Shown piece after piece: positions 7,950-45,390 of a DNA stretch of 47,318 nt (positions are counted from its first letter, which is position 1; each line of letters begins with the position of its first letter). Made by a program: the position numbers and the translations under genes. Where the stretch lies: contig JAGWLA010000002.1 in assembly GCA_028865095.1 (NCBI GenBank), positions 1 through 47,318 of the forward strand, given 5' to 3'. The notes beneath the pieces are model-generated. The model was not told the DNA's origin and searched no databases. It saw only the letters and a program-made list of their open reading frames with translations. The stretch is from Patescibacteria group bacterium. Its GTDB lineage: Bacteria > Patescibacteriota > Minisyncoccia > Phycocordibacterales > PALSA-1337.

Positions 7950-8288
7950 ATGAATAACGCAGACCAAGCTTTTCTGGAATACGTCATCAAGGCCCTCGTC
8001 GACAATCCCGACAAGGTCAAGGTCGCCCGCACGGTGGACGAGATGGGCGTGCTCCTCACGCTCGACGTCGACGCCGCCGACATGGGCAAGATCATCGGCC
8101 GTCAGGGCAATACCGCCAAGTCCATCCGCACCCTCCTGCGCGTCGTCGGCATGAAGAACAATTCGCGCGTCAATCTGAAGATCAACGAGCCGGTCGGCGG
8201 CCTCCGCTCGGCGGAGCATGCCGGCATGTCGGCTGCCCAGTCCGCTTCCAAGACGGTGGATGAGGCGATGGCCGACCTCAACCTCTGA
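7950..8288 (+). CDS. KH-domain RNA-binding protein (YlqC/UPF0109-like)
   Basis: Shows KALVDNPDKVKV and the GKIIGRQGNTAKSIRTLL motif (GxxG KH loop). This is the conserved position after rpsP. Confidence 0.8.
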   Translation: MNNADQAFLEYVIKALVDNPDKVKVARTVDEMGVLLTLDVDAADMGKIIGRQGNTAKSIRTLLRVVGMKNNSRVNLKINEPVGGLRSAEHAGMSAAQSASKTVDEAMADLNL

Positions 8289-18577: not shown

Positions 18578-19819
18578 ATGAGCACACGCAAAAAAGCAGC
18601 TCGTCCGGCAGCTGGCGCGCAGCATGGCTCCCGCCGCGCCGCCAAGAAAGCGTCCCCCTCTGGCAAGAAGAAAGCCCAACGCCCGGCCTCGAAGGCGAAG
18701 AAGGCGAAGCGCCCCTCCAAGGGCGGCCATTCCGCCGAGAAGAGCTTCGAGGCGAAGGCGGCAGCCCTCATCCAGAAGGGCCGCGACCGCGGCTTCGTCA
18801 CATATGACGAGATCATGAAGGAGTTCCCGCAAGTGGAGAACGACATCGCTTTCCTCGACGACCTTTACGGCAAGCTCTCGACTGCCGGCGTCGACGTCCT
18901 CGAAGGGGGAGGCATCCTCGAGGTCGAGGAAGCCAAGGAGAAGGAGAAGAAGCAGGCCCCCCACTATTCGCGCGGCGGGTCCGACAGCGCCTATGACTCG
19001 ATCCAGATGTACCTGAAGGAGATCGGCCAGTACCCGCTCATCAATGCCGGCATGGAGAAAGAGCTCGCCAAGCGCATCCAGAACGGCGACATCGAAGCCA
19101 AGAACCTCCTGGCCAAGGCCAACCTCCGCCTGGTCGTCTCCATCGCCAAGAAATACGTCGGGAGGTCTCCCGACTTGACCCTTCTCGACCTCATCCAGGA
19201 AGGGAACCTCGGCTTGTTCCGGGCCGTCGACAAGTTCGACTGGACCAAAGGCTATAAATTCTCGACGTATGCCACCTGGTGGATACGCCAGGCCATCACC
19301 CGCGCCCTGGCCGACCAGTCCCGCACCATCCGCGTGCCGGTCCATATGGTGGAGACCATCGCCAAATACAAGCAGGTCGTCCGCCGCCTCATGCAGGACC
19401 TCGGCCGCGAGCCGCTTCCCGACGAGATCGCCACGGAGATGGGCATGGACGTGGACAAGATCTATCAGATCGAGAAGATCGAGCAGGACGTCGTCTCCCT
19501 CGAGAGCCCCGTCGGCGACGATGACGACGGCAAGTCCACCCTCGGCGACTTCATCGCCGACGACAAGATCCTCTCTCCCGAGCAGGAATCGTCGCGTCGC
19601 ATCCTCCGCGACCAGGTGAACGCCATCCTGAACGACCTCTCGGAGAAGGAGCGCAAGATACTCGAGATGCGCCACGGCTTGAACGACGGCATCACCCATA
19701 CCCTCGAAGAAGTGGGCAAGGAATTCGGCGTCACCCGCGAGCGCATCCGCCAGATCGAAGCCAAGGCGCATGACAAGATCCGCGAGCACGACCAAGCCGG
19801 CCGGCTGAAGAATTACTGA
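18578..19819 (+). CDS. rpoD: Primary RNA polymerase sigma factor (sigma-70 family) with a Lys/Ala/Arg-rich N-terminal tail
   Basis: Shows [11 protein letters not shown], region 2 ([16 protein letters not shown]) and region 4 ([20 protein letters not shown]). This is the usual dnaG-rpoD order. Confidence 0.9.
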
Positions 19820-38302: not shown

Positions 38303-39070
38303 TCAGCCGAGCCAGCCGCTGACGATGGCCTCGGTCTCTTCGGGGCCTTTCACTTCGACGCAGTCGATGCCCGTCGCTTTGGCCGGGTAGTCGTTGCCGC
38401 CGGGCATGAGCTTGTCGCCGACGAAGACCATGTCGTCGATGTGCATATGGAGGTGCTCTTCGAGCTTGCGGATGCCGTAGCCCTTGTTCACGCCGCGCCG
38501 GGTGATGTCGATGGAGTTGGTGCCGCCGATGCGCACGTCGAAGCCGGGGATCTTCTCCTTGATGGCGTCCGCGATCTTCCGCCGCTTCTCGCCAGAAGGG
38601 TCCCAGCGCTCCTTGACCGCGAGCGGGGCGTCCTGCCCGTTAGCGGAGAACGTGACTTGCGAACCGCGGTCCTCGATGGCCGGGCCGAACGTCTTCGCGG
38701 GCTTCTCGACGCCGGATGCCGCCAGGGCGGCGTTCAAAGCGGCCATGATGGCCTCTTTCTCGCGCGGCGCGAGATGCTCGGCGTATTCCTCGCACCAGAC
38801 GCTCCTCCATACCAGCAGCCGGGTCCCGGATGCGGGCAGGAGGAACAGGTTCGCGAACCCTTCCGCCGCCGCAGGCAAGGCGCTCAAGAAATTAGCCTCG
38901 AACTCCTTGTAGCCGCTCCCCGATATGACCGCTACTTTCACCTCTTTGAGCAGGCGGACGATGAGGGCCCCCATGGCGGCGGACATGGGGGATTTGCTCG
39001 GGGCGAGCGTGCCGTCGAGGTCGAATATCACCAGCTTCTTCATGCGGATGTCGGGAGGGCTGTTCGTCAT
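38303..39070 (-). CDS. HAD-IIB hydrolase, phosphomannomutase-like / sugar phosphatase-like
   Basis: Shows VIFDLDGTLAPS (motif I), VISGSG, and FVGDKLMPGGNDYP (motif IV). Its start overlaps the upstream stop (ATGA). Confidence 0.7.
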   Translation of the reverse strand: MTNSPPDIRMKKLVIFDLDGTLAPSKSPMSAAMGALIVRLLKEVKVAVISGSGYKEFEANFLSALPAAAEGFANLFLLPASGTRLLVWRSVWCEEYAEHLAPREKEAIMAALNAALAASGVEKPAKTFGPAIEDRGSQVTFSANGQDAPLAVKERWDPSGEKRRKIADAIKEKIPGFDVRIGGTNSIDITRRGVNKGYGIRKLEEHLHMHIDDMVFVGDKLMPGGNDYPAKATGIDCVEVKGPEETEAIVSGWLG

Positions 39071-40968
39071 GTCTTCAGCATATCGAGGATCGCCTTGAGC
39101 TTGATCGAGGCGACGCCGCAGACGCTGTCGGCCGCGCCGTAATACATATAAAGGGTGCCGTTGCGCTCGACGAGGCCGCAGGGGAAGACGACGTTCGGGG
39201 TCGCCCCTTTGCGCTCGTACTCCTCTTCAGGCTCGAAGAGCGGTATGGCGGTGCGGGCGACCACGACCGTCGGATCGTCGAGGCCGAGGAGCACCGCCCC
39301 GACGCGGTACGTGGTGCTCCAGGAGACGCCGTGATAGAGGAGCAGCCATCCCGACTTCGTCTTGAGAGGAGGGGCCGATATGCCGACCTTGCCCCCGTCC
39401 CACATGCCGCGGCGGGGCGCGATGATCTCGATGCACTTCGTGACCTTCTCGGCGCTGAAATCGAGGGAATCCACCAAGTCGGCGCACACGCTTTCCCTGA
39501 CGCGATGGAATACCAGGTAGCGCCCGCCGACGCTCTCAGGCAGAATGGCGGCGTCCTTGTCGTCCACGCCCGGCGGAGTGATGGCGTACGGCGCGCTCCA
39601 GGATCCCCACTTCTTGGCCAGGAAATCGGCGACGGAGATGGAGCTCACTGCGACCCGCGGGGTATGCCCGTCATATCCCGTATAGGCCATATAGAGGCGG
39701 TCGCCGATGCGCATGACGCGCGGGTCCTCGCAGCCGTAGTTCTCCGCGCCGTCGCGGCGGGTCTCGAACGGCGCCCGGGGGAAATAGATGGGCTTGTCGG
39801 AGCGCTCGTCGATGGAGAAGCCGTCGCTCGTAGAGGCGTAGCCGATGGTCGAGACGTTCCCCCGGGCCACCGCGCGGTAGAGGATGTGCGTCGTGTCGCC
39901 GAGGTCGATGGCGGCGGGGTTGATCGTCCCGGCCGCCTCCCATTGGACGCCCGGGCGCGGGGCGATGATCGGGTTGCCGGGGAAGCGGGCGAAGCTGCGC
40001 TGCGGCGGGTCGACGATGCTGCGGAGCAGGTTGTCGAGCGGGATGCTGGCCATGGCGCAGTAGGTGTCGGCCGCGCCGTAATAGACCTCGAGCTTGCCGT
40101 CGGCGACGAGGGCGCCGCTCGGGAAGATGATGCTCGGGACCTCGCCGACGCGCTCATAATGGGTCTCGGGGACCATGAACGGCCCTTTGGTCCTTCCTAC
40201 GATGCGGCGCGGGTTCTCATGGTCGAGAAGGAGCGTCTCGACGCCGAAGACGCAATCGGGCTTCGCATACCGCTGGATATGCGAATAGACGATCAGCCAG
40301 CCCTTCTCGGTCCAGACCGGCGGCGCGCCGAGCTCGATATGGTCGTCAGGCAGGCGGCGGATGTGGAGCTTGTGGGAGTCGACGCTCTTCAGCCACTCTT
40401 CCCAATAGGCCGGCGACCACATGTCCTCGGGGGAATCGAATTCGGCGAAGCAGATGTCGGCCGGCTTGCGGTCCGTATTGATGGTGAGCAGGGCGCAGAG
40501 CTTGCCGCCGATCCTCTTCGGGAAGAGAGCCATGGCTTTGGCGTTGAACGGCGTCACCAGATGCTTTTCGGAGACAGAGCGGAGGTCTTTCGAAAGGGCC
40601 ACCGCCACTTTGATGTTGTCGGCAGAATACGGGAAGCCGCCGAGGGCGGTATAGAAGATGTAATACGTCCCGCCTATCTCGGTCACGCGGGGATCCTCGC
40701 AGCCGTACCGGTCGAAATCGCTTCCGGGCGTCACGAGCGCTTTCCGCTCGCCAAAGTGGATGCCGTCGTCGGAGAAGGAGCTGCCGATGACGGAAGTCTT
40801 GATATGGGTCGGCTGGAGGAGGTCCGGCTGGGACATGCACCGGTAGACCATGCAGGCGCGCGAGCCCGCCTTCACCGGGCATCCGTTGAATGCGGCGGAA
40901 GCTTCCCACGGATGGTCTTCCGTCGGGGACAGCAGGGGATTATGGGGAGAGCGGGTGACCGTGAACAT
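39067..40968 (-). CDS. Tandem double GH130-like (DUF377 glycosidase/phosphorylase) protein, 633 aa
   Basis: Two homologous halves, each with NP(L/I)(L/I)xP, WE..A.FN(G/P)A, YGCEDPRV and an ...Y.(F/A)YT core. Confidence 0.7.
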   Translation of the reverse strand: MFTVTRSPHNPLLSPTEDHPWEASAAFNGCPVKAGSRACMVYRCMSQPDLLQPTHIKTSVIGSSFSDDGIHFGERKALVTPGSDFDRYGCEDPRVTEIGGTYYIFYTALGGFPYSADNIKVAVALSKDLRSVSEKHLVTPFNAKAMALFPKRIGGKLCALLTINTDRKPADICFAEFDSPEDMWSPAYWEEWLKSVDSHKLHIRRLPDDHIELGAPPVWTEKGWLIVYSHIQRYAKPDCVFGVETLLLDHENPRRIVGRTKGPFMVPETHYERVGEVPSIIFPSGALVADGKLEVYYGAADTYCAMASIPLDNLLRSIVDPPQRSFARFPGNPIIAPRPGVQWEAAGTINPAAIDLGDTTHILYRAVARGNVSTIGYASTSDGFSIDERSDKPIYFPRAPFETRRDGAENYGCEDPRVMRIGDRLYMAYTGYDGHTPRVAVSSISVADFLAKKWGSWSAPYAITPPGVDDKDAAILPESVGGRYLVFHRVRESVCADLVDSLDFSAEKVTKCIEIIAPRRGMWDGGKVGISAPPLKTKSGWLLLYHGVSWSTTYRVGAVLLGLDDPTVVVARTAIPLFEPEEEYERKGATPNVVFPCGLVERNGTLYMYYGAADSVCGVASIKLKAILDMLKT

Positions 40969-40976
40969 CCCTCAGA

Positions 40977-42128
40977 TTATACGGCACCATAGGCCGCGAG
41001 CCAATCGAGGAGGCTGCGGAGCGGCGTGCGGGCGGCGCAGACATGCTTGTCGCCGCCGCCGTAATAGACATGCAGCATGCCGTCTTTCACCACCGCCCCC
41101 GACGCATAGACGACGCCGGGCTTGCCGTCGTTCTCGTAGGGCGCTTCGGGAAGGAGGATCGGCTCGGGCGAGCGGTAGAGCACCCTCGTCGGCTCGTCGG
41201 GATCGAGCACCAGGGCGCCGACGCTATATCCGACGGCCTTGCGGGGGTCGCGCTCGTCGAACGCGTGATAGAGCACCAGCCAGCCGAGCCCGGTCCGGAT
41301 TGGCGGCGAGCCGGTCCCGCGCATGCGCCGGTCCCAATGGCCCGCGCGGCCCGGGTCGGCATATCCCCACCCTCCGTGGTCGGAGGCGCTGTCGATCTGC
41401 CGCTTCCCGAAGAAGTCGTCGACGCTGTCGACATAGTCGATGAGCACTTTCGGCGAGAGGCCGTGCAGTATGGCGAATTTCCCGCGGATCTTCTCGGGGA
41501 AGAGCACCCAGTTCTTGTTGCGCTTCCTGGCGGGCGAGATGAGCACCGGGCGCTTCCATGCCCAGCGCCGGCGCTTGAGGTCGTCGAGGCCGATGGAAGT
41601 GACGGCGATGCGCATGCTCTCCCAGCCCTCGAACGCCATATAGGTCATGTATACCCGGTCGCCGATGCGGACGGCCCGGGGGTCTTCCGCGCCGCCCCAG
41701 CCTCCGCCGGAAGGATGCTCGGCGATGTCATAGCCGTGCGGCCCGGGGACGCGCATCGGGTCGGGCATGCCGAAGCCGGGCTGCGGATTGAAGACCGGGA
41801 ACGGGGAGCGGTACGACACGTCGAGCCCGTCGGGGCTCCGGGCATAGCCGATCCGCGATATGCCGTCGCCGCCGATGGCCCGATAGAAGAGGTGGACCGT
41901 CCCTTCGTCGTCGCAGACAGCGGCCGGGTTGAACGTGCCCTCGCTTTCCCACTCGACATGGGGCTGGGGCGATATGAGGGGGTTGCGGGCGTGCCGCGAG
42001 AGCCCGGCGGCCGGCCTTCCGGCCGCGCGCTTCCTTTTCCGCCGCGCTGCGCCCTGGACGATGACGCATATGAAGGCGATCGCCGCTACGACCAGCGCTG
42101 CGAGAGCGACGATGATAGCGGGGTCCAT
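40977..42128 (-). CDS. GH130-like protein with an N-terminal TM anchor followed by RRKRKR
   Basis: Shows MDPAIIVALAALVVAAIAFICVIV, NPLISPQPHVEWESEGTFNPAAV and GGAEDPRAVRIGDRVYMTYMAF. Confidence 0.7.
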   Translation of the reverse strand: MDPAIIVALAALVVAAIAFICVIVQGAARRKRKRAAGRPAAGLSRHARNPLISPQPHVEWESEGTFNPAAVCDDEGTVHLFYRAIGGDGISRIGYARSPDGLDVSYRSPFPVFNPQPGFGMPDPMRVPGPHGYDIAEHPSGGGWGGAEDPRAVRIGDRVYMTYMAFEGWESMRIAVTSIGLDDLKRRRWAWKRPVLISPARKRNKNWVLFPEKIRGKFAILHGLSPKVLIDYVDSVDDFFGKRQIDSASDHGGWGYADPGRAGHWDRRMRGTGSPPIRTGLGWLVLYHAFDERDPRKAVGYSVGALVLDPDEPTRVLYRSPEPILLPEAPYENDGKPGVVYASGAVVKDGMLHVYYGGGDKHVCAARTPLRSLLDWLAAYGAV

Positions 42129-42236: not shown

Positions 42237-42923
42237 TTACGGGCGCGCCTCCTGTGAATAACCCATCGCCAGATCCCGCTTGAAGGCCTTCTTGGCGATG
42301 GCGAATATGGCGTAGGTGATGAAGAACGCCGAAGCGACGTCGATGGAATAGTGGAGGTGCCCCATGAGGACGACGGCCGCGAAGAAGGCCGCCGCGACGA
42401 GGCAGAACGCCCGCGTCCGCCGATCCGCCCAGAAGACGAGCGCCATCAGGAACGGCAAGCCGGTATGGCCCGAGAAGAAGAGGTCCGATCCCGACCCGAA
42501 GAAAGCGAAATAGAGGTCGCCGTGGAAGGCGGTCTGCAGCCAGCCGGTGCCGACGGAGTCGATGACGACGTGGTCGGGGTACGGGCCGATATGGGTGAGA
42601 GTGATGAAAGCCGACCGGACGACGACGAATAGGGCGATGCTCTTCAGGGCGAAAGGTATGCGCTCGGGCTTCCACAGCAGGAAGACGGCGATGGCCGCCC
42701 AGAAGACGATCGGCCCCCAGACGAACGCCCAGTCGACGTCGAATACGGGGATGTTGGAGAGGACGATGTCGCTCACCGGGCTCGAAGCGCGGTCGAAGGC
42801 GTAGAGGGCGGCGAAGTACATCACGACCACGCTCGCGGCGAGCATGGCGGCCGATGCCGCCAGCGACCAGAGATAGCGGCGGTCGCGGAGCAAGGCTCGG
42901 TATCGGGGGAGGATGTCCTTCAT
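42237..42923 (-). CDS. PAP2-superfamily membrane phosphatase/transferase (PAP2_C-like)
   Basis: Multi-TM protein with FFSGHTGLPF and MGHLHYSIDVASAF (the SGH and HxxxD motifs). Confidence 0.65.
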   Translation of the reverse strand: MKDILPRYRALLRDRRYLWSLAASAAMLAASVVVMYFAALYAFDRASSPVSDIVLSNIPVFDVDWAFVWGPIVFWAAIAVFLLWKPERIPFALKSIALFVVVRSAFITLTHIGPYPDHVVIDSVGTGWLQTAFHGDLYFAFFGSGSDLFFSGHTGLPFLMALVFWADRRTRAFCLVAAAFFAAVVLMGHLHYSIDVASAFFITYAIFAIAKKAFKRDLAMGYSQEARP

Positions 42924-42930
42924 GGCTGCG

Positions 42931-43101
42931 TCAGATATAATCGGCCAGCCTGAATCCTGCCCATATGCCGGCCAGGCCCCCGGCGGCGCTCAAGACGATC
43001 GACGAGAAGGAAAGGAACCCTCCGCCCCAGATGAGAGGGATCGACCCGCCGACGGTCGATCCGGCGAACAGCCCTATCCAGATCAATGTCTTCCTGTTCA
43101 T
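42931..43101 (-). CDS. Small Gly-rich two-TM membrane protein (56 aa)
   Basis: Sequence MNRKTLIWIGLFAGSTVGGSIPLIWGGGFLSFSSIVLSAAGGLAGIWAGFRLADYI. A perfect extended -10 lies 9 nt upstream. The longer 43164 start would run into the tRNA. Confidence 0.45.
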   Translation of the reverse strand: MNRKTLIWIGLFAGSTVGGSIPLIWGGGFLSFSSIVLSAAGGLAGIWAGFRLADYI

Positions 43102-43110
43102 ATGACGCCG

Positions 43111-43119
43111 ATTATAGCA
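43111..43119 (-). promoter_or_regulatory. Consensus extended -10 (TGcTATAAT) sitting in the loop of a 7-bp hairpin between tRNA-Cys and the small ORF
   Basis: The minus strand reads GACGCCGtaTGcTATAATCGGCGTCatATG. The stem is 43104-43110 / 43122-43128. Confidence 0.45.
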
Positions 43120-43135
43120 TACGGCGTCGCGCGTG

Positions 43136-43207
43136 AGGCCACGGCGGGAATCGAACCCGCGCATATCGGTTTTGCAGACCGACGAATTACCACTTTTCTA
43201 CGTGGCC
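43136..43207 (-). tRNA. tRNA-Cys (anticodon GCA)
   Basis: Manual cloverleaf: acceptor GGCCACG/CGTGGCC; D arm GAAA-AGTGGTA-ATTC with an A13-A22 mismatch; anticodon stem TCGGT/ACCGA with loop CTGCAAA; T arm GCGGG-TTCGATT-CCCGC; discriminator U73. CCA is not encoded. Confidence 0.85.
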
Positions 43208-43238
43208 GCGAAGTGAAGTATAGAGCATAACGGGAAAA

Positions 43239-43325
43239 GTATGAAGTATAAATAAAGTATAAAGTATAAAGTATGAAGTATGATGTATAAAGCATGAAGT
43301 ATGATGTATAAAGCATGAAGTATGG
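43239..43325. repeat. Tandem heptamer array GTATRAW (about 12 copies), left arm of an inverted pair
   Basis: Units are GTATGAA, GTATAAA, GTATGAT and GCATGAA. A 21-nt super-unit GTATGAT-GTATAAA-GCATGAA occurs twice. The array is AT-rich in a GC-rich genome. Confidence 0.85.
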
Positions 43326-43344
43326 TTCAGGTGCGACTATACCC

Positions 43345-43435
43345 CATACCTCATACCTCATACCTCATACCTCATACCTCATACCTCATACCCCATACCT
43401 CATACTTCATACCCCATACCTCATACTTCATACTT
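43345..43435. repeat. Tandem heptamer array CATACYY (13 copies), right arm, inverted relative to the left arm
   Basis: CATACCT occurs six times, followed by CATACCC-CATACCT-CATACTT twice and one more CATACTT. Degenerate copies run into the rbfA stop region. Confidence 0.85.
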
Positions 43436-43444
43436 ACTTCATTC

Positions 43445-43777
43445 TTACATACCCCGCATATCCTTCTCGATCTCATCCAGGCGCTGGCGGTTCTTCTCCC
43501 CTTTGTCGAGCTCCGCGTCGAAGAACGGCACCCGCATCATGCGCGCATGCTCGCCGACGTATTCCCGGAAGTCGCCCAGCCGCCGCTTCATGAAGTCGAG
43601 CGCCGCCGCTTCCTGGTCCTCGGGCATGACCGTGAAGAGGACGGTCGCCCTGCCGTTGCGGCTCTTGAGGTCGACGCCGGTGACGGTGATGAGCGAGGTG
43701 CGGTTCGATTCCTTCGAGAAGAAATCCGCGGCCAGCCCGCGCAGCAGCTCTTTCAGCTTGAGGCTCTTCTGGTCCAT
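43445..43777 (-). CDS. rbfA: Ribosome-binding factor A
   Basis: 110 aa, with the LITVTGVDLKSRNGRATVLF and RVPFFDAELDKG pattern. It lies immediately downstream of infB. Confidence 0.85.
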   Translation of the reverse strand: MDQKSLKLKELLRGLAADFFSKESNRTSLITVTGVDLKSRNGRATVLFTVMPEDQEAAALDFMKRRLGDFREYVGEHARMMRVPFFDAELDKGEKNRQRLDEIEKDMRGM

Positions 43778-43781
43778 GGCG

Positions 43782-45347
43782 TCAGGGCTTCTTCTCGACC
43801 AGGCGGACGGACTCGATGCGGTCGCCGGCGGCGATCTCCGCTTTGGATTCGACCATCACGCCGAACTCGTGGCCTTCCGCCACGTCGCGGGCGCGCGCTT
43901 TCTTCTCCTGGAGGTCGCGGACCTTGCCGCGGCCGATCTCCGCGTCGCGGCGGAGGATGCGGACGTCGTCTCCCAGGGCGATGGTGCCGGATTCGACCTT
44001 GCCGCCGACGACCTGCTTGTCCTTCTCCTTGGAGAAGAGGGCCAGGATCTTGGCCCGGCCGGTCGATTCCTCGGCGTATTCCTTGGGGACTTTGGCGAGA
44101 AGGGAGGCGCGGACGAAGTCGGCGAGCTCATATATGACCTTGAACGACTTCACGGCGAGAGGGACGGGGGAGCGTTCGATGACCGCCGCGGATTTCCGGT
44201 CGGGCGCGGCGTTGAACCCGACGATGACGATGGAAGGGTCGCTCTGGGCCGATTTGACGTCGTTCTCGTTGATGTCGCCGATGCCTTCCGAGACGATCTT
44301 CAGGGCCGCCCGGTCGTGGCGTATCGCGGCCAGCTCGTGCATGACGCCCTCGAGGGAGCCGATGGCGTCGGCTTTGACGATGAGCGGCAGGACCACGGGC
44401 CCGGCCGAGCCTTTCTCGCCCGGCTTGAGCTTGTCGGCCGCGACCGAGGGCAGCGGCACGGCCGCAGCCTTAGGGGCGCGGGCCTTCGATGCCGCCGTGG
44501 CGGCCGCGGCCTCCTTCTCGGCCTCTTTCTTGCTGGCCGCCGTCGTCCACGCCGACCCGCACTCGGGGGCCTGGCTCCAGCCGACGATGACGGCCGGCAT
44601 CGAAGGGCCGGCCCGCTCTATCTTGGCGCGGTTGAAGTCCTCGATGAAGCGCACCGGCGCGAAAGCGCCGCCGGCCACGATGAACGAGCCTGTCTCGAGC
44701 GTCCCGTCCTTGACCAGGAGGGTGGCCGTCACGCCTTTGCGGGTGTCTAGCTCCGATTCGACGACCACGCCGGACGCGGGGGCGGAAAGGTCGGCTTTCA
44801 GGCCGGCGAGCTCGGCGACCAGGACGATCATGTCCAGGAGCTCGGGGACGCCCGCGCCCGTCAGGGCGGAAAGGGCGACGCAGGGCACGTCGCCGCCCCA
44901 GCCTTCGACATAGACTTCGTGCTCGGCGAGGGAGGTCTTGGTCCGGTCGACGTCGGCGTTCGGCTTGTCGATCTTGTTGATGGCGACGATGAAGGGGATC
45001 TTAGCGGCGCGTATCTCGCTCAGCGCTTCGACGGTCTGCGGCTTGACGCCGTCTTCCGCGGAGACCACCAGGATGGCGATGTCGGCCGCCTGGGCCCCGC
45101 GCTCGCGGATCGAGCAGAACGCAGCGTGGCCGGGGGTGTCGAGGAACGTGATCTGGTGGCGGACGCCGTCCGAAGCGGAATGCTCCGCCTGGTAGGCGCC
45201 GACGTGCTGGGTGATGCCGCCGGCTTCGCCGGCCACGATGTTCGACTGGCGGATGCGGTCGAGGAGGGTCGATTTCCCATGGTCGATATGGCCCATGACG
45301 ACGACCACGGGAGGGCGGGGAACCAGATTGTGCTGGTCTTTTTGCAT
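43782..45347 (-). CDS. infB: Translation initiation factor IF-2 (short form, no long N-terminal region)
   Basis: Shows [27 protein letters not shown] and NKIDK. The ATG at 45347 was chosen because the TTG at 45371 lies inside the predicted promoter. Confidence 0.9.
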
Positions 45348-45361
45348 AGGAAAGGAGCCCC

Positions 45362-45390
45362 AGTGTAGCAAAGAACGCTGGAATTGACAA
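45362..45390 (-). promoter_or_regulatory. Promoter TTGTCA-17-(TGc)TACACT for infB
   Basis: On the minus strand, TTGTCA is at 45390-45385 and TGcTACACT at 45370-45362. The ATG is 14 nt downstream, with no Shine-Dalgarno sequence. Confidence 0.5.

Follow-up and report, generated by a model that had tools for sequence, protein, structure and literature searches.

The window analyzed here, a 47,318-nucleotide (nt) stretch of contig JAGWLA010000002.1 from a Patescibacteria group bacterium, carries two facing arrays of heptanucleotide repeats that occupy nearly the whole spacer between rbfA and the tRNA-Cys gene and that are predicted to fold into a single very long hairpin. In our view, this element is probably a slippage-grown, lineage-specific, hairpin-forming inverted pair of heptanucleotide arrays whose effect at the gene boundary is a by-product that is tolerated or of slight use, as opposed to a conserved device kept by selection. 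We rate it so because the arrays are absent from relatives, because the class to which they belong shows no strand-specific constraint, and because the two arms evolve independently. Objects of this kind are already represented by the paired GGGAATC arrays of Xanthomonas and by P6b, a stem of the tRNA-Leu intron in Nostoc. The feature is real and large, but the case for a novel type of RNA duplex under selection has not been made, and the importance of the feature is modest.

The repeat element and its fold

The intergenic spacer extends over 237 nt from the rbfA stop codon to the 5' end of the tRNA at 43207, and its GC content is 35%, compared to 64% for the window in the GC profile. From the 5' to the 3' side of the minus strand, the locus is composed as follows, with repeats located with Tandem Repeats Finder (TRF) and pairing taken from the minimum free energy (MFE) structure.

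43445-43777, minus strand: rbfA, 110 amino acids (aa) (Pfam RBFA, 36.1 bits)
43436-43444, minus strand: outward continuation of the 5' arm, immediately following the rbfA stop codon TAA (43445-43447) (MFE structure)
43345-43435, minus strand: right array, 13 heptads reading CATACYY on the plus strand (TRF, exact count, and fold)
43326-43344, minus strand: inter-array spacer, 19 nt
43239 to about 43325, minus strand: left array, 12 in-phase heptads (TRF, exact count, and heptad pairing table)
43211-43238, minus strand: outer, imperfect extension of the 3' arm, derived from the array, carrying a -10-like box and pairing with 43436-43444 (MFE structure)
43135-43207, minus strand: tRNA-Cys(GCA), uninterrupted (ARAGORN; Rfam RF00005, 70.1 bits)

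A preliminary description of this DNA had reported 12 GTATRAW heptamers facing 13 CATACYY heptamers across 19 nt, with a 21-nt super-unit present twice in each arm; exact counting confirmed both statements, and TRF recovered the arrays. On the left, TRF reports a period of 7 at 43237-43324 (13 copies, 77% matches) and, within it, a period of 21 (3.3 copies, 43256-43324). The left heptads comprise nine strict GTATRAW, two GCATGAA, and one GTATGGT, with a 4-nt insertion at 43253-43256, and the super-unit AAGTATGATGTATAAAGCATG occurs twice at 43276-43317. Its plus-strand units GTATGAA, GTATAAA, GTATGAT, and GCATGAA correspond to UUCAUAC, UUUAUAC, AUCAUAC, and UUCAUGC in the 3' arm of the minus-strand hairpin. 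The right array (TRF period 7, 43339-43433, 13.6 copies, 90% matches) reads (GRRGTATG)n as the 5' arm of that hairpin and contains the super-unit CATACCCCATACCTCATACTT twice at 43387-43428. The two arms are of near-equal length (87 versus 91 nt). The motif CATACYTCATACY, searched with at most one mismatch, has 17 matches in the window, all of them in the rbfA/tRNA-Cys spacer, compared to 0.02 expected; within the 47 kb, the unit is confined to this locus. The two arms do not have their 21-nt super-units in register; each super-unit pairs with homogeneous heptads of the opposite arm. The arms have therefore expanded independently, without coordinated or compensatory change.

The RNA MFE of positions 43200-43460 is -69.1 kcal/mol for the plus strand (z = -6.5) and -131.1 kcal/mol for the minus strand (z = -12.5). 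The minus-strand RNA forms 111 pairs (57 A.U, 31 G.C, and 23 G.U) and the plus-strand RNA 81, 2 of which are G.U. The minus-strand structure is a single predicted stem of ~95 bp, interrupted by two 1x1 mismatches and one 4-nt bulge and closed by the 8-nt apical loop AUAGUCGC at 43333-43340; in a stem scan of the 47 kb it scores 149, the next best hairpin scoring 48. With DNA parameters, the strand asymmetry persists and is smaller (-47.8 versus -33.0). The preliminary description had expected the two strands to fold differently as RNA and the better-folding one to be the sense strand of infB-rbfA and tRNA-Cys. Both expectations were borne out, with a difference of 62 kcal/mol in RNA MFE.

It had also argued from this asymmetry to an RNA duplex under selection, a step in which we do not follow it, since the wobbles are of only four types and the relatives lack a sense bias. 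A transition-tolerant alignment of the arms over 119 positions gives 83 Watson-Crick pairs, 27 minus-strand G.U pairs, 5 A.C pairs, and 4 others. The wobbles are G.U at heptad position 7 (almost all units), G.U at position 5 (the UUUAUAC units), U.G at position 2 (the CAUGC units), and G.U at position 6 (the GGG units), and they derive from both C->U and A->G changes; beside them, the heptad pairing table holds one transversion type, in the AUCAUAC units. Since duplication of units and super-units multiplied each wobble type, the alignment contains about four independent events, and the chance of all of them pointing in one direction is ~1 in 16. The 27 wobbles are thus four unit variants amplified by slippage, and the asymmetry is weak evidence for a selected RNA duplex. 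More generally, a G.U/A.C asymmetry in a repeat-built hairpin can stem from a few slippage-amplified variants and is, alone, no proof of RNA selection.

The junction in relatives and heptamer arrays in other phyla

To compare the locus, we used 80 related loci (L130-L209) from a JGI metagenome scan with RbfA alignment, which belong to the Paceibacteria clade. Judged by the names attached to the RbfA homologues and by its gene content, the source of the window is itself a Patescibacterium of the Paceibacteria/Parcubacteria type. RbfA has 119 homologues in Patescibacteria, the nearest at most 77% identical, with no identical sequence recorded. The synteny DUF4446-infB-rbfA is kept in relatives, and a tRNA-Cys(GCA) gene lies downstream of rbfA on the same strand in 73 of the 80 loci, five of the remaining seven having less than 140 nt of sequence after rbfA. 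Among the 73, the rbfA/tRNA-Cys spacer ranges from 0 to 334 nt (at most 52 nt in 55 loci and at least 84 nt in 18); most spacers measure 11 to 50 nt, and often exactly 11 to 13. In L005-L008, whose RbfA is 70% identical, the order is rbfA, tRNA-Cys, tRNA-Leu, with tRNA-Cys beginning 11 nt past the rbfA stop, and this spacer contains no repeat and no hairpin. The heptamer arrays of the window are absent from all 80 related loci. Since 73 of the 80 keep the gene adjacency and none has the arrays, the adjacency dates from the ancestor and the 237-nt element is an expansion specific to this lineage. The site behaves as hypervariable simple-sequence DNA, and no relative carries the arrays, which is largely the outcome that the preliminary description had itself set against its reading.

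In relatives, long hairpins of unrelated sequence turn up sporadically at these operon junctions. Many of the longer rbfA/tRNA-Cys spacers contain one just past the rbfA stop (L145, L147, L170, L174, L186, L188, L195, and L196); others lie between infB and rbfA (L139, L146, L153, and L195), and directly after tRNA-Cys (L138, L177, L188, L195, L199, and L206). The arms of seven independent strong hairpins have an autocorrelation of 0.64 to 0.77 at lag 7, with units such as AAATCCG, GGGACTA, GAATCAY, and AAAATGA, among others, while lag 7 is the best lag in only 9% of random 28-nt segments of the related loci. TRF also reports period 7 more often than any other in these loci (36 of 167 rows), again with diverse units; a GTAT core shared among the hairpins of the clade was considered and dropped, because the units in this unbiased TRF list are varied. 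Within the conserved infB-rbfA-tRNA-Cys cluster, the short spacers are recurrent birthplaces of such hairpins. In 20 operon hairpins of relatives with known transcription direction, the sense RNA has 55 G.U and 70 A.C pairs, the A.C positions being G.U in the antisense RNA, and L139, L195, L206, and L153 are among the hairpins that fold better as antisense. Therefore, there is no general signature of selection on a sense RNA duplex.

Individual loci illustrate this diversity. Three different repeat-built hairpins lie in three consecutive spacers within 1 kb at L195:273-953, each with its own unit (a GAAAATA-type unit of period 8 between infB and rbfA, GTATCAG/CTGATAC between rbfA and tRNA-Cys, and GTATAAG/GTATAGG after tRNA-Cys). 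At L140:2816-2837, a miniature palindromic AGTATAT AGTATAT ACTATAT spans the rbfA stop in a 27-nt rbfA/tRNA-Cys spacer and may be an early stage of an expansion like that of the window. Strong hairpins follow tRNA-Cys at L138:2915-2982, L206:2913-2987, L177:2909-2947, and L199:1851-1897; these may be terminators of the rbfA-tRNA unit, and that of L206 folds better as antisense (-49 versus -38 kcal/mol).

A scan for (GTATGRR)3GTATG over 185,579 species genomes found, among the matches listed, Bacteroidota, Nostocales, Planctomycetota, Verrucomicrobiota, Chloroflexota, and one Patescibacterium. From other genomes, we examined 119 loci (L011-L129; 807 kb) of many phyla, chosen as carriers of (GTATGRR)n, and such genomes proved rich in heptamer arrays of all sorts. 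In this sample, 264 of the 582 TRF rows have period 7, with ~108 distinct units, and 66 (23%) of the 290 heptamer-type arrays form 33 inverted pairs, such as those of L029, L036, L049, L127, and L067 (arms of ~200 nt). The strands differ by at least 10 kcal/mol in 12 of the 33 pairs, and no consistent tie to gene direction emerges, 3 pairs folding better as sense and 5 as antisense by crude open reading frame (ORF) calls. Sense-strand G.U bias as a general property was therefore rejected, on these counts together with the 55 versus 70 pairs of the relatives. The arm lengths of inverted pairs are weakly coupled (Spearman 0.20, P = 0.26; Pearson of logs 0.39, P = 0.03), too weakly for us to read selection or templating into the coupling. 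Stretches of (GTATGRR)4 number 17 in viral contigs, compared to 79, 35, and 35 for three composition-matched permuted heptamers. GTATGRR as a special cross-phylum motif was likewise rejected: about 108 other units occupy the same loci, and the permuted controls are as common or commoner.

The inverted pairs in the 807-kb sample often begin right after a stop codon and end just before the next start codon. A very large hairpin, at L067:1036-1429 (Saprospiraceae metagenome-assembled genome contig JAYUQN010000620.1), sets ~27 GTATGAA/ATATGAA units against ~27 TTCATAC/TTCATAT units over 6 nt, with RNA MFEs of -282 (plus) and -256 (minus) kcal/mol. At L106:2665-2938 and L068:5535-5740, arrays built from different heptamer units lie end to end (CTGATAG beside CTCATAC; GTATTAA/GTATTAG, TTCATAC, and CTTATAC), a pattern suggesting that a unit first mutates and is then expanded anew at the same place.

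Origin, possible roles, and alternative explanations

The probable pathway to the element starts from an ancestral spacer of ~11 nt between the rbfA stop and tRNA-Cys, within which replication slippage would have proceeded in 7-nt and 21-nt steps. The likely seeds are the terminal GGTATGTAA of rbfA, giving rise to the 5' arm, and the complementary TATAC of the tRNA -10 box; the last codons of rbfA, GGT ATG TAA, indeed resemble the repeat unit GGTATGA. Transcripts leaving infB-rbfA would then form the ~95-bp stem, in which G.U and A.U pairs abound and which starts 1 to 4 nt after the stop codon. Repetitive extragenic palindromic (REP) sequences, bacterial interspersed mosaic elements (BIMEs), and Correia elements are intercistronic hairpins of operons; REP RNA guards upstream mRNA from 3' exonucleases, and Correia elements are cut by RNase III as RNA and can supply promoters. 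By analogy, the stem would hold up 3' exonucleases and be open to cleavage by a double-strand-specific RNase, RNase III for example; its predicted length is well above the ~20 bp of near-continuous double-stranded RNA (dsRNA) that an RNase III stem requires. It would thereby mark a transcript boundary, with the infB-rbfA message on one side and the tRNA on the other. A role as RNase III substrate or as boundary is a possibility; the rnc gene was not found within the 47-kb window. As for termination, an intrinsic terminator was rejected: the consensus scan calls none at the hairpin, the stem is dominated by the A.U and G.U pairs counted above, and only UUUU follows it, which makes it at best a weak terminator.

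In this scheme, tRNA-Cys would still be expressed from its own -10 box TATACT, kept at the foot of the 3' arm. The following features bear on this point and on the alternatives considered below.

43245..43217, minus strand: sigma-70-like promoter candidate TTCATA-17-TATACT (consensus scan, 9 of 12 matches)
43782-45371, minus strand: infB, short IF-2 of 529 aa, upstream gene of the operon (Pfam GTP_EFTU, IF-2, and EF-G_D2)
18578-19819: rpoD
7950-8288: KhpA/B KH-domain gene

The candidate -10 ends 9 nt before the mature 5' end of tRNA-Cys, and the -35 lies within the last repeat units. The preliminary description had pointed to this very site, and the consensus scan finds it, as one of 2 such sites in 900 nt compared to 0.8 expected, which is weak evidence alone. 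The relatives add comparative support: among 71 nonredundant loci, TANNNT hexamers with variable positions 3 to 5 are enriched at distances of 8 to 19 nt before the 5' end of tRNA-Cys, most of all at 8 nt (13 loci versus ~1 per position beyond 25 nt); this peak is inflated by shared ancestry and often consists of TAGAAT overlapping the TAG stop of rbfA. Given this enrichment, the TATACT at 9 nt, and the presence of rpoD, a dedicated tRNA-Cys promoter is plausible; transcripts from it would begin at the mature 5' end or just ahead of it. In Paceibacteria relatives, a TAGAAT/TATAAT-like box lies over the rbfA stop, 8 nt upstream of the tRNA 5' end, and would imply near-leaderless tRNA-Cys transcripts there.

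Several points weigh against a slippage-grown element that is merely tolerated. The seeding scenario is drawn from one genome, read-through into the stem and its processing are predictions from the fold, and copy numbers taken from a metagenome assembly may be imprecise. Moreover, the wobble bias of 27 G.U versus 5 A.C and the 62 kcal/mol gap exceed those of any relative and, together with the near-equal arms, are what selection for an RNA duplex would give, while the recurrence of hairpins at exactly the infB-rbfA-tRNA-Cys junctions may mean that they are useful. These observations, along with the z-score of the sense RNA and the derivation of wobbles from changes of both kinds, are also the case for selection keeping a duplex of ~85 to 95 bp in the infB-rbfA-tRNA-Cys transcript, as an RNase III stem, as an insulator or terminator, or as a 3' stabilizer uncoupling mRNA and tRNA levels. 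We nevertheless hold such a selected duplex to be unlikely. Only four independent wobble types underlie the bias, relatives have more A.C than G.U pairs in the sense RNA and include hairpins that fold better as antisense, and 80 of 80 related loci lack the element, most of them with short spacers. Canonical terminator features and a match to an Rfam family are missing, and the super-units are out of register, so that coordinated or compensatory change is absent. A broader version, in which we place appreciably less belief, would make heptamer-periodic inverted arrays a distinct, actively maintained class of intercistronic dsRNA boundary in Patescibacteria and perhaps more widely. Such arrays would colonize the infB|rbfA|tRNA-Cys junctions repeatedly and independently, being either produced by hairpin-templated slippage or retained by a heptad-reading factor; they would serve, through RNase III, to cut polycistronic mRNA-tRNA transcripts and to adjust how stable each piece is relative to the others, and the 95-bp stem of the window, with its strong sense G.U bias, would be the clearest selected example. 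If an adaptive reading were true, the locus would be a convenient model for studying the partition of mRNA-tRNA cotranscripts by dsRNA stems in organisms with minimal regulatory repertoires.

Proteins rather than RNA pairing might also be what the heptads serve, either as sites that an OB-fold or KH protein (Csp, S1, or KhpA/B-like) would recognize in RNA or DNA in single-stranded form or that a regulator would bind in duplex DNA, the inversion then being secondary. This is consistent with the KhpA/B gene in the window, with the binding of heptamer direct repeats by CspB, one protein per heptad, and the factor proposed for TAACTGA repeats (PMC4679880), and with the partner suspected for Nostoc heptamer repeats (bioRxiv 10.1101/2022.06.06.494920). 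Yet the units differ wholly between related genomes and even between adjacent spacers of L195, so there is no shared recognition sequence; the window has a single array locus, and the arms would be sequestered in the duplex. A 7-bp period, moreover, does not phase sites on one face of B-DNA, and we find a binding array highly improbable. Slightly more improbable still is a small mobile palindromic element, of the MITE (miniature inverted-repeat transposable element), REP/BIME, or Correia-like kind, present as a remnant or insertion beside the tRNA gene. The locus does behave as an insertion relative to the ancestral 11-nt spacer, its inverted symmetry covers the whole 237 nt, and one end is promoter-like, as in Correia elements. 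Membership in these families was rejected, since there is no second copy in the window, no related copy in the 80 relatives, and no target-site duplication evident in the flanks; the arms are internally tandem, with slippage-type super-units in place of unique terminal inverted repeats, and no gene for a transposase or a REP-associated tyrosine transposase (RAYT) lies nearby. Least credible of all is an assembly artifact, such as a fold-back chimera or a collapsed or expanded repeat: the contig is of metagenome type and tandem arrays are hard to assemble, so that copy numbers may be off, but the arms are nonidentical, with systematic differences and different super-unit structures, both flanks are the expected syntenic neighbors, rbfA and tRNA-Cys, and the same architecture appears in many independent assemblies.

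Around the element, three ORFs running through the repeats (43098-43361 minus, 43315-43593 plus, and 43322-44137 plus) were rejected as spurious because they encode periodic repeat peptides and overlap the confirmed rbfA and tRNA genes. Downstream of tRNA-Cys, a 77-aa ORF (42931-43164, minus strand) overlaps the tRNA gene by 30 nt; its real start is probably an internal ATG, giving a glycine-rich, hydrophobic peptide of ~56 aa (MNRKTLIWIGLFAG...) that has no Pfam match and is probably a membrane peptide. Since no terminator-like hairpin separates tRNA-Cys from this ORF, the tRNA may be cotranscribed with it and with a PAP2 gene. Farther on, positions 39067-42128 (minus strand) hold two adjoining GH130 (mannoside phosphorylase-like) genes, the first of which (633 aa) contains two GH130-like halves.

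Comparison with known repeat systems

At gathering threshold, Rfam 15 finds only tRNA in the whole window; a permissive search of 42900-43800 adds microRNA (miRNA)-precursor models at 22 to 39 bits, compared to gathering values of 73 to 100, which we attribute to a generic long hairpin. With a Rho-independent terminator, the element shares a stem-loop directly after a stop codon, followed by UUUU. It differs in having ~95 bp rich in A.U and G.U pairs instead of 5 to 20 GC-rich bp, an 8-nt loop, and four U residues only. The behavior suggested for the stem, protection from 3' exonucleases and cutting by RNase III, would liken it to REP and Correia elements; unlike the window's element, which is single-copy, tandem-built, and shares no sequence with them, those are dispersed and of conserved sequence, some with a transposase.

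Closer parallels are found among simple sequence repeats (SSRs). Heptanucleotides are the commonest long SSR class in prokaryotes, for which slippage was proposed, according to the accounts of Mrazek 2007 given in PMC4679880 and PMC4692102. TAACTGA arrays occur in Beggiatoaceae, Cyanobacteria, and Bacteroidetes (MacGregor 2015, PMC4679880). Like these and the cyanobacterial short tandemly repeated repetitive (STRR) and long simple sequence repeat (LSSR) arrays, the arrays described here are intergenic, phylogenetically sporadic, and hypervariable; those repeats are mostly direct and dispersed in many copies, whereas here one inverted pair forms a very long hairpin. The role of heptamer repeats was still described as "not very well worked out" in a 2022 preprint (bioRxiv 10.1101/2022.06.06.494920), and an adaptive function of the element, if true, would bear on this long-standing question in bacteria.

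The preliminary description held that no described element has this organization. This is wrong, since both the Xanthomonas array pairs (PMC4692102) and the Nostoc P6b stems (PMC4476775) do. As summarized in the latter source from Costa et al. 2002, both sides of P6b in the group I intron of the Nostoc tRNA-Leu(UAA) gene are made of 7-nt repeats that are gained and lost as units. The likeness lies in an RNA stem of complementary, degenerate heptamers within or adjoining a tRNA gene; P6b is described as part of a self-splicing intron and as genus-wide, whereas the stem of the window lies in an mRNA-tRNA spacer and is absent from relatives. No group I intron is present at tRNA-Cys, where the tRNA is uninterrupted and Rfam finds tRNA only.

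In Xanthomonas, each genome holds 70 to 75 convergent pairs of GGGAATC arrays on opposite strands, which are able to fold into stem-loops or cruciforms (Rehm et al. 2015, PMC4692102); the single or paired type of these arrays is usually preserved, their lengths vary between species, and most are transcribed (PMC4692102). The window's arrays resemble them in being tandem 7-nt arrays on each strand, close together, convergent, intergenic, and capable of forming a stem-loop. They differ in the unit (AT-rich GTATGAG here versus a G-rich, quadruplex-prone one there), in phylum, in copy number (one locus in the 47-kb window versus hundreds of copies per Xanthomonas genome), and in their long arms of 12 to 13 units that differ systematically by transitions. 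With its tandem 7-nt copies, a complementary array 19 nt away in intergenic DNA, and its absence from the 80 related loci, the element has the traits of an inverted heptanucleotide SSR pair, and its ~95-bp stem is among the longest examples of the kind. It extends hairpin-forming inverted heptanucleotide repeats, seen earlier mainly in Xanthomonas and Nostocales, to a GC-rich Patescibacterium with a reduced genome.

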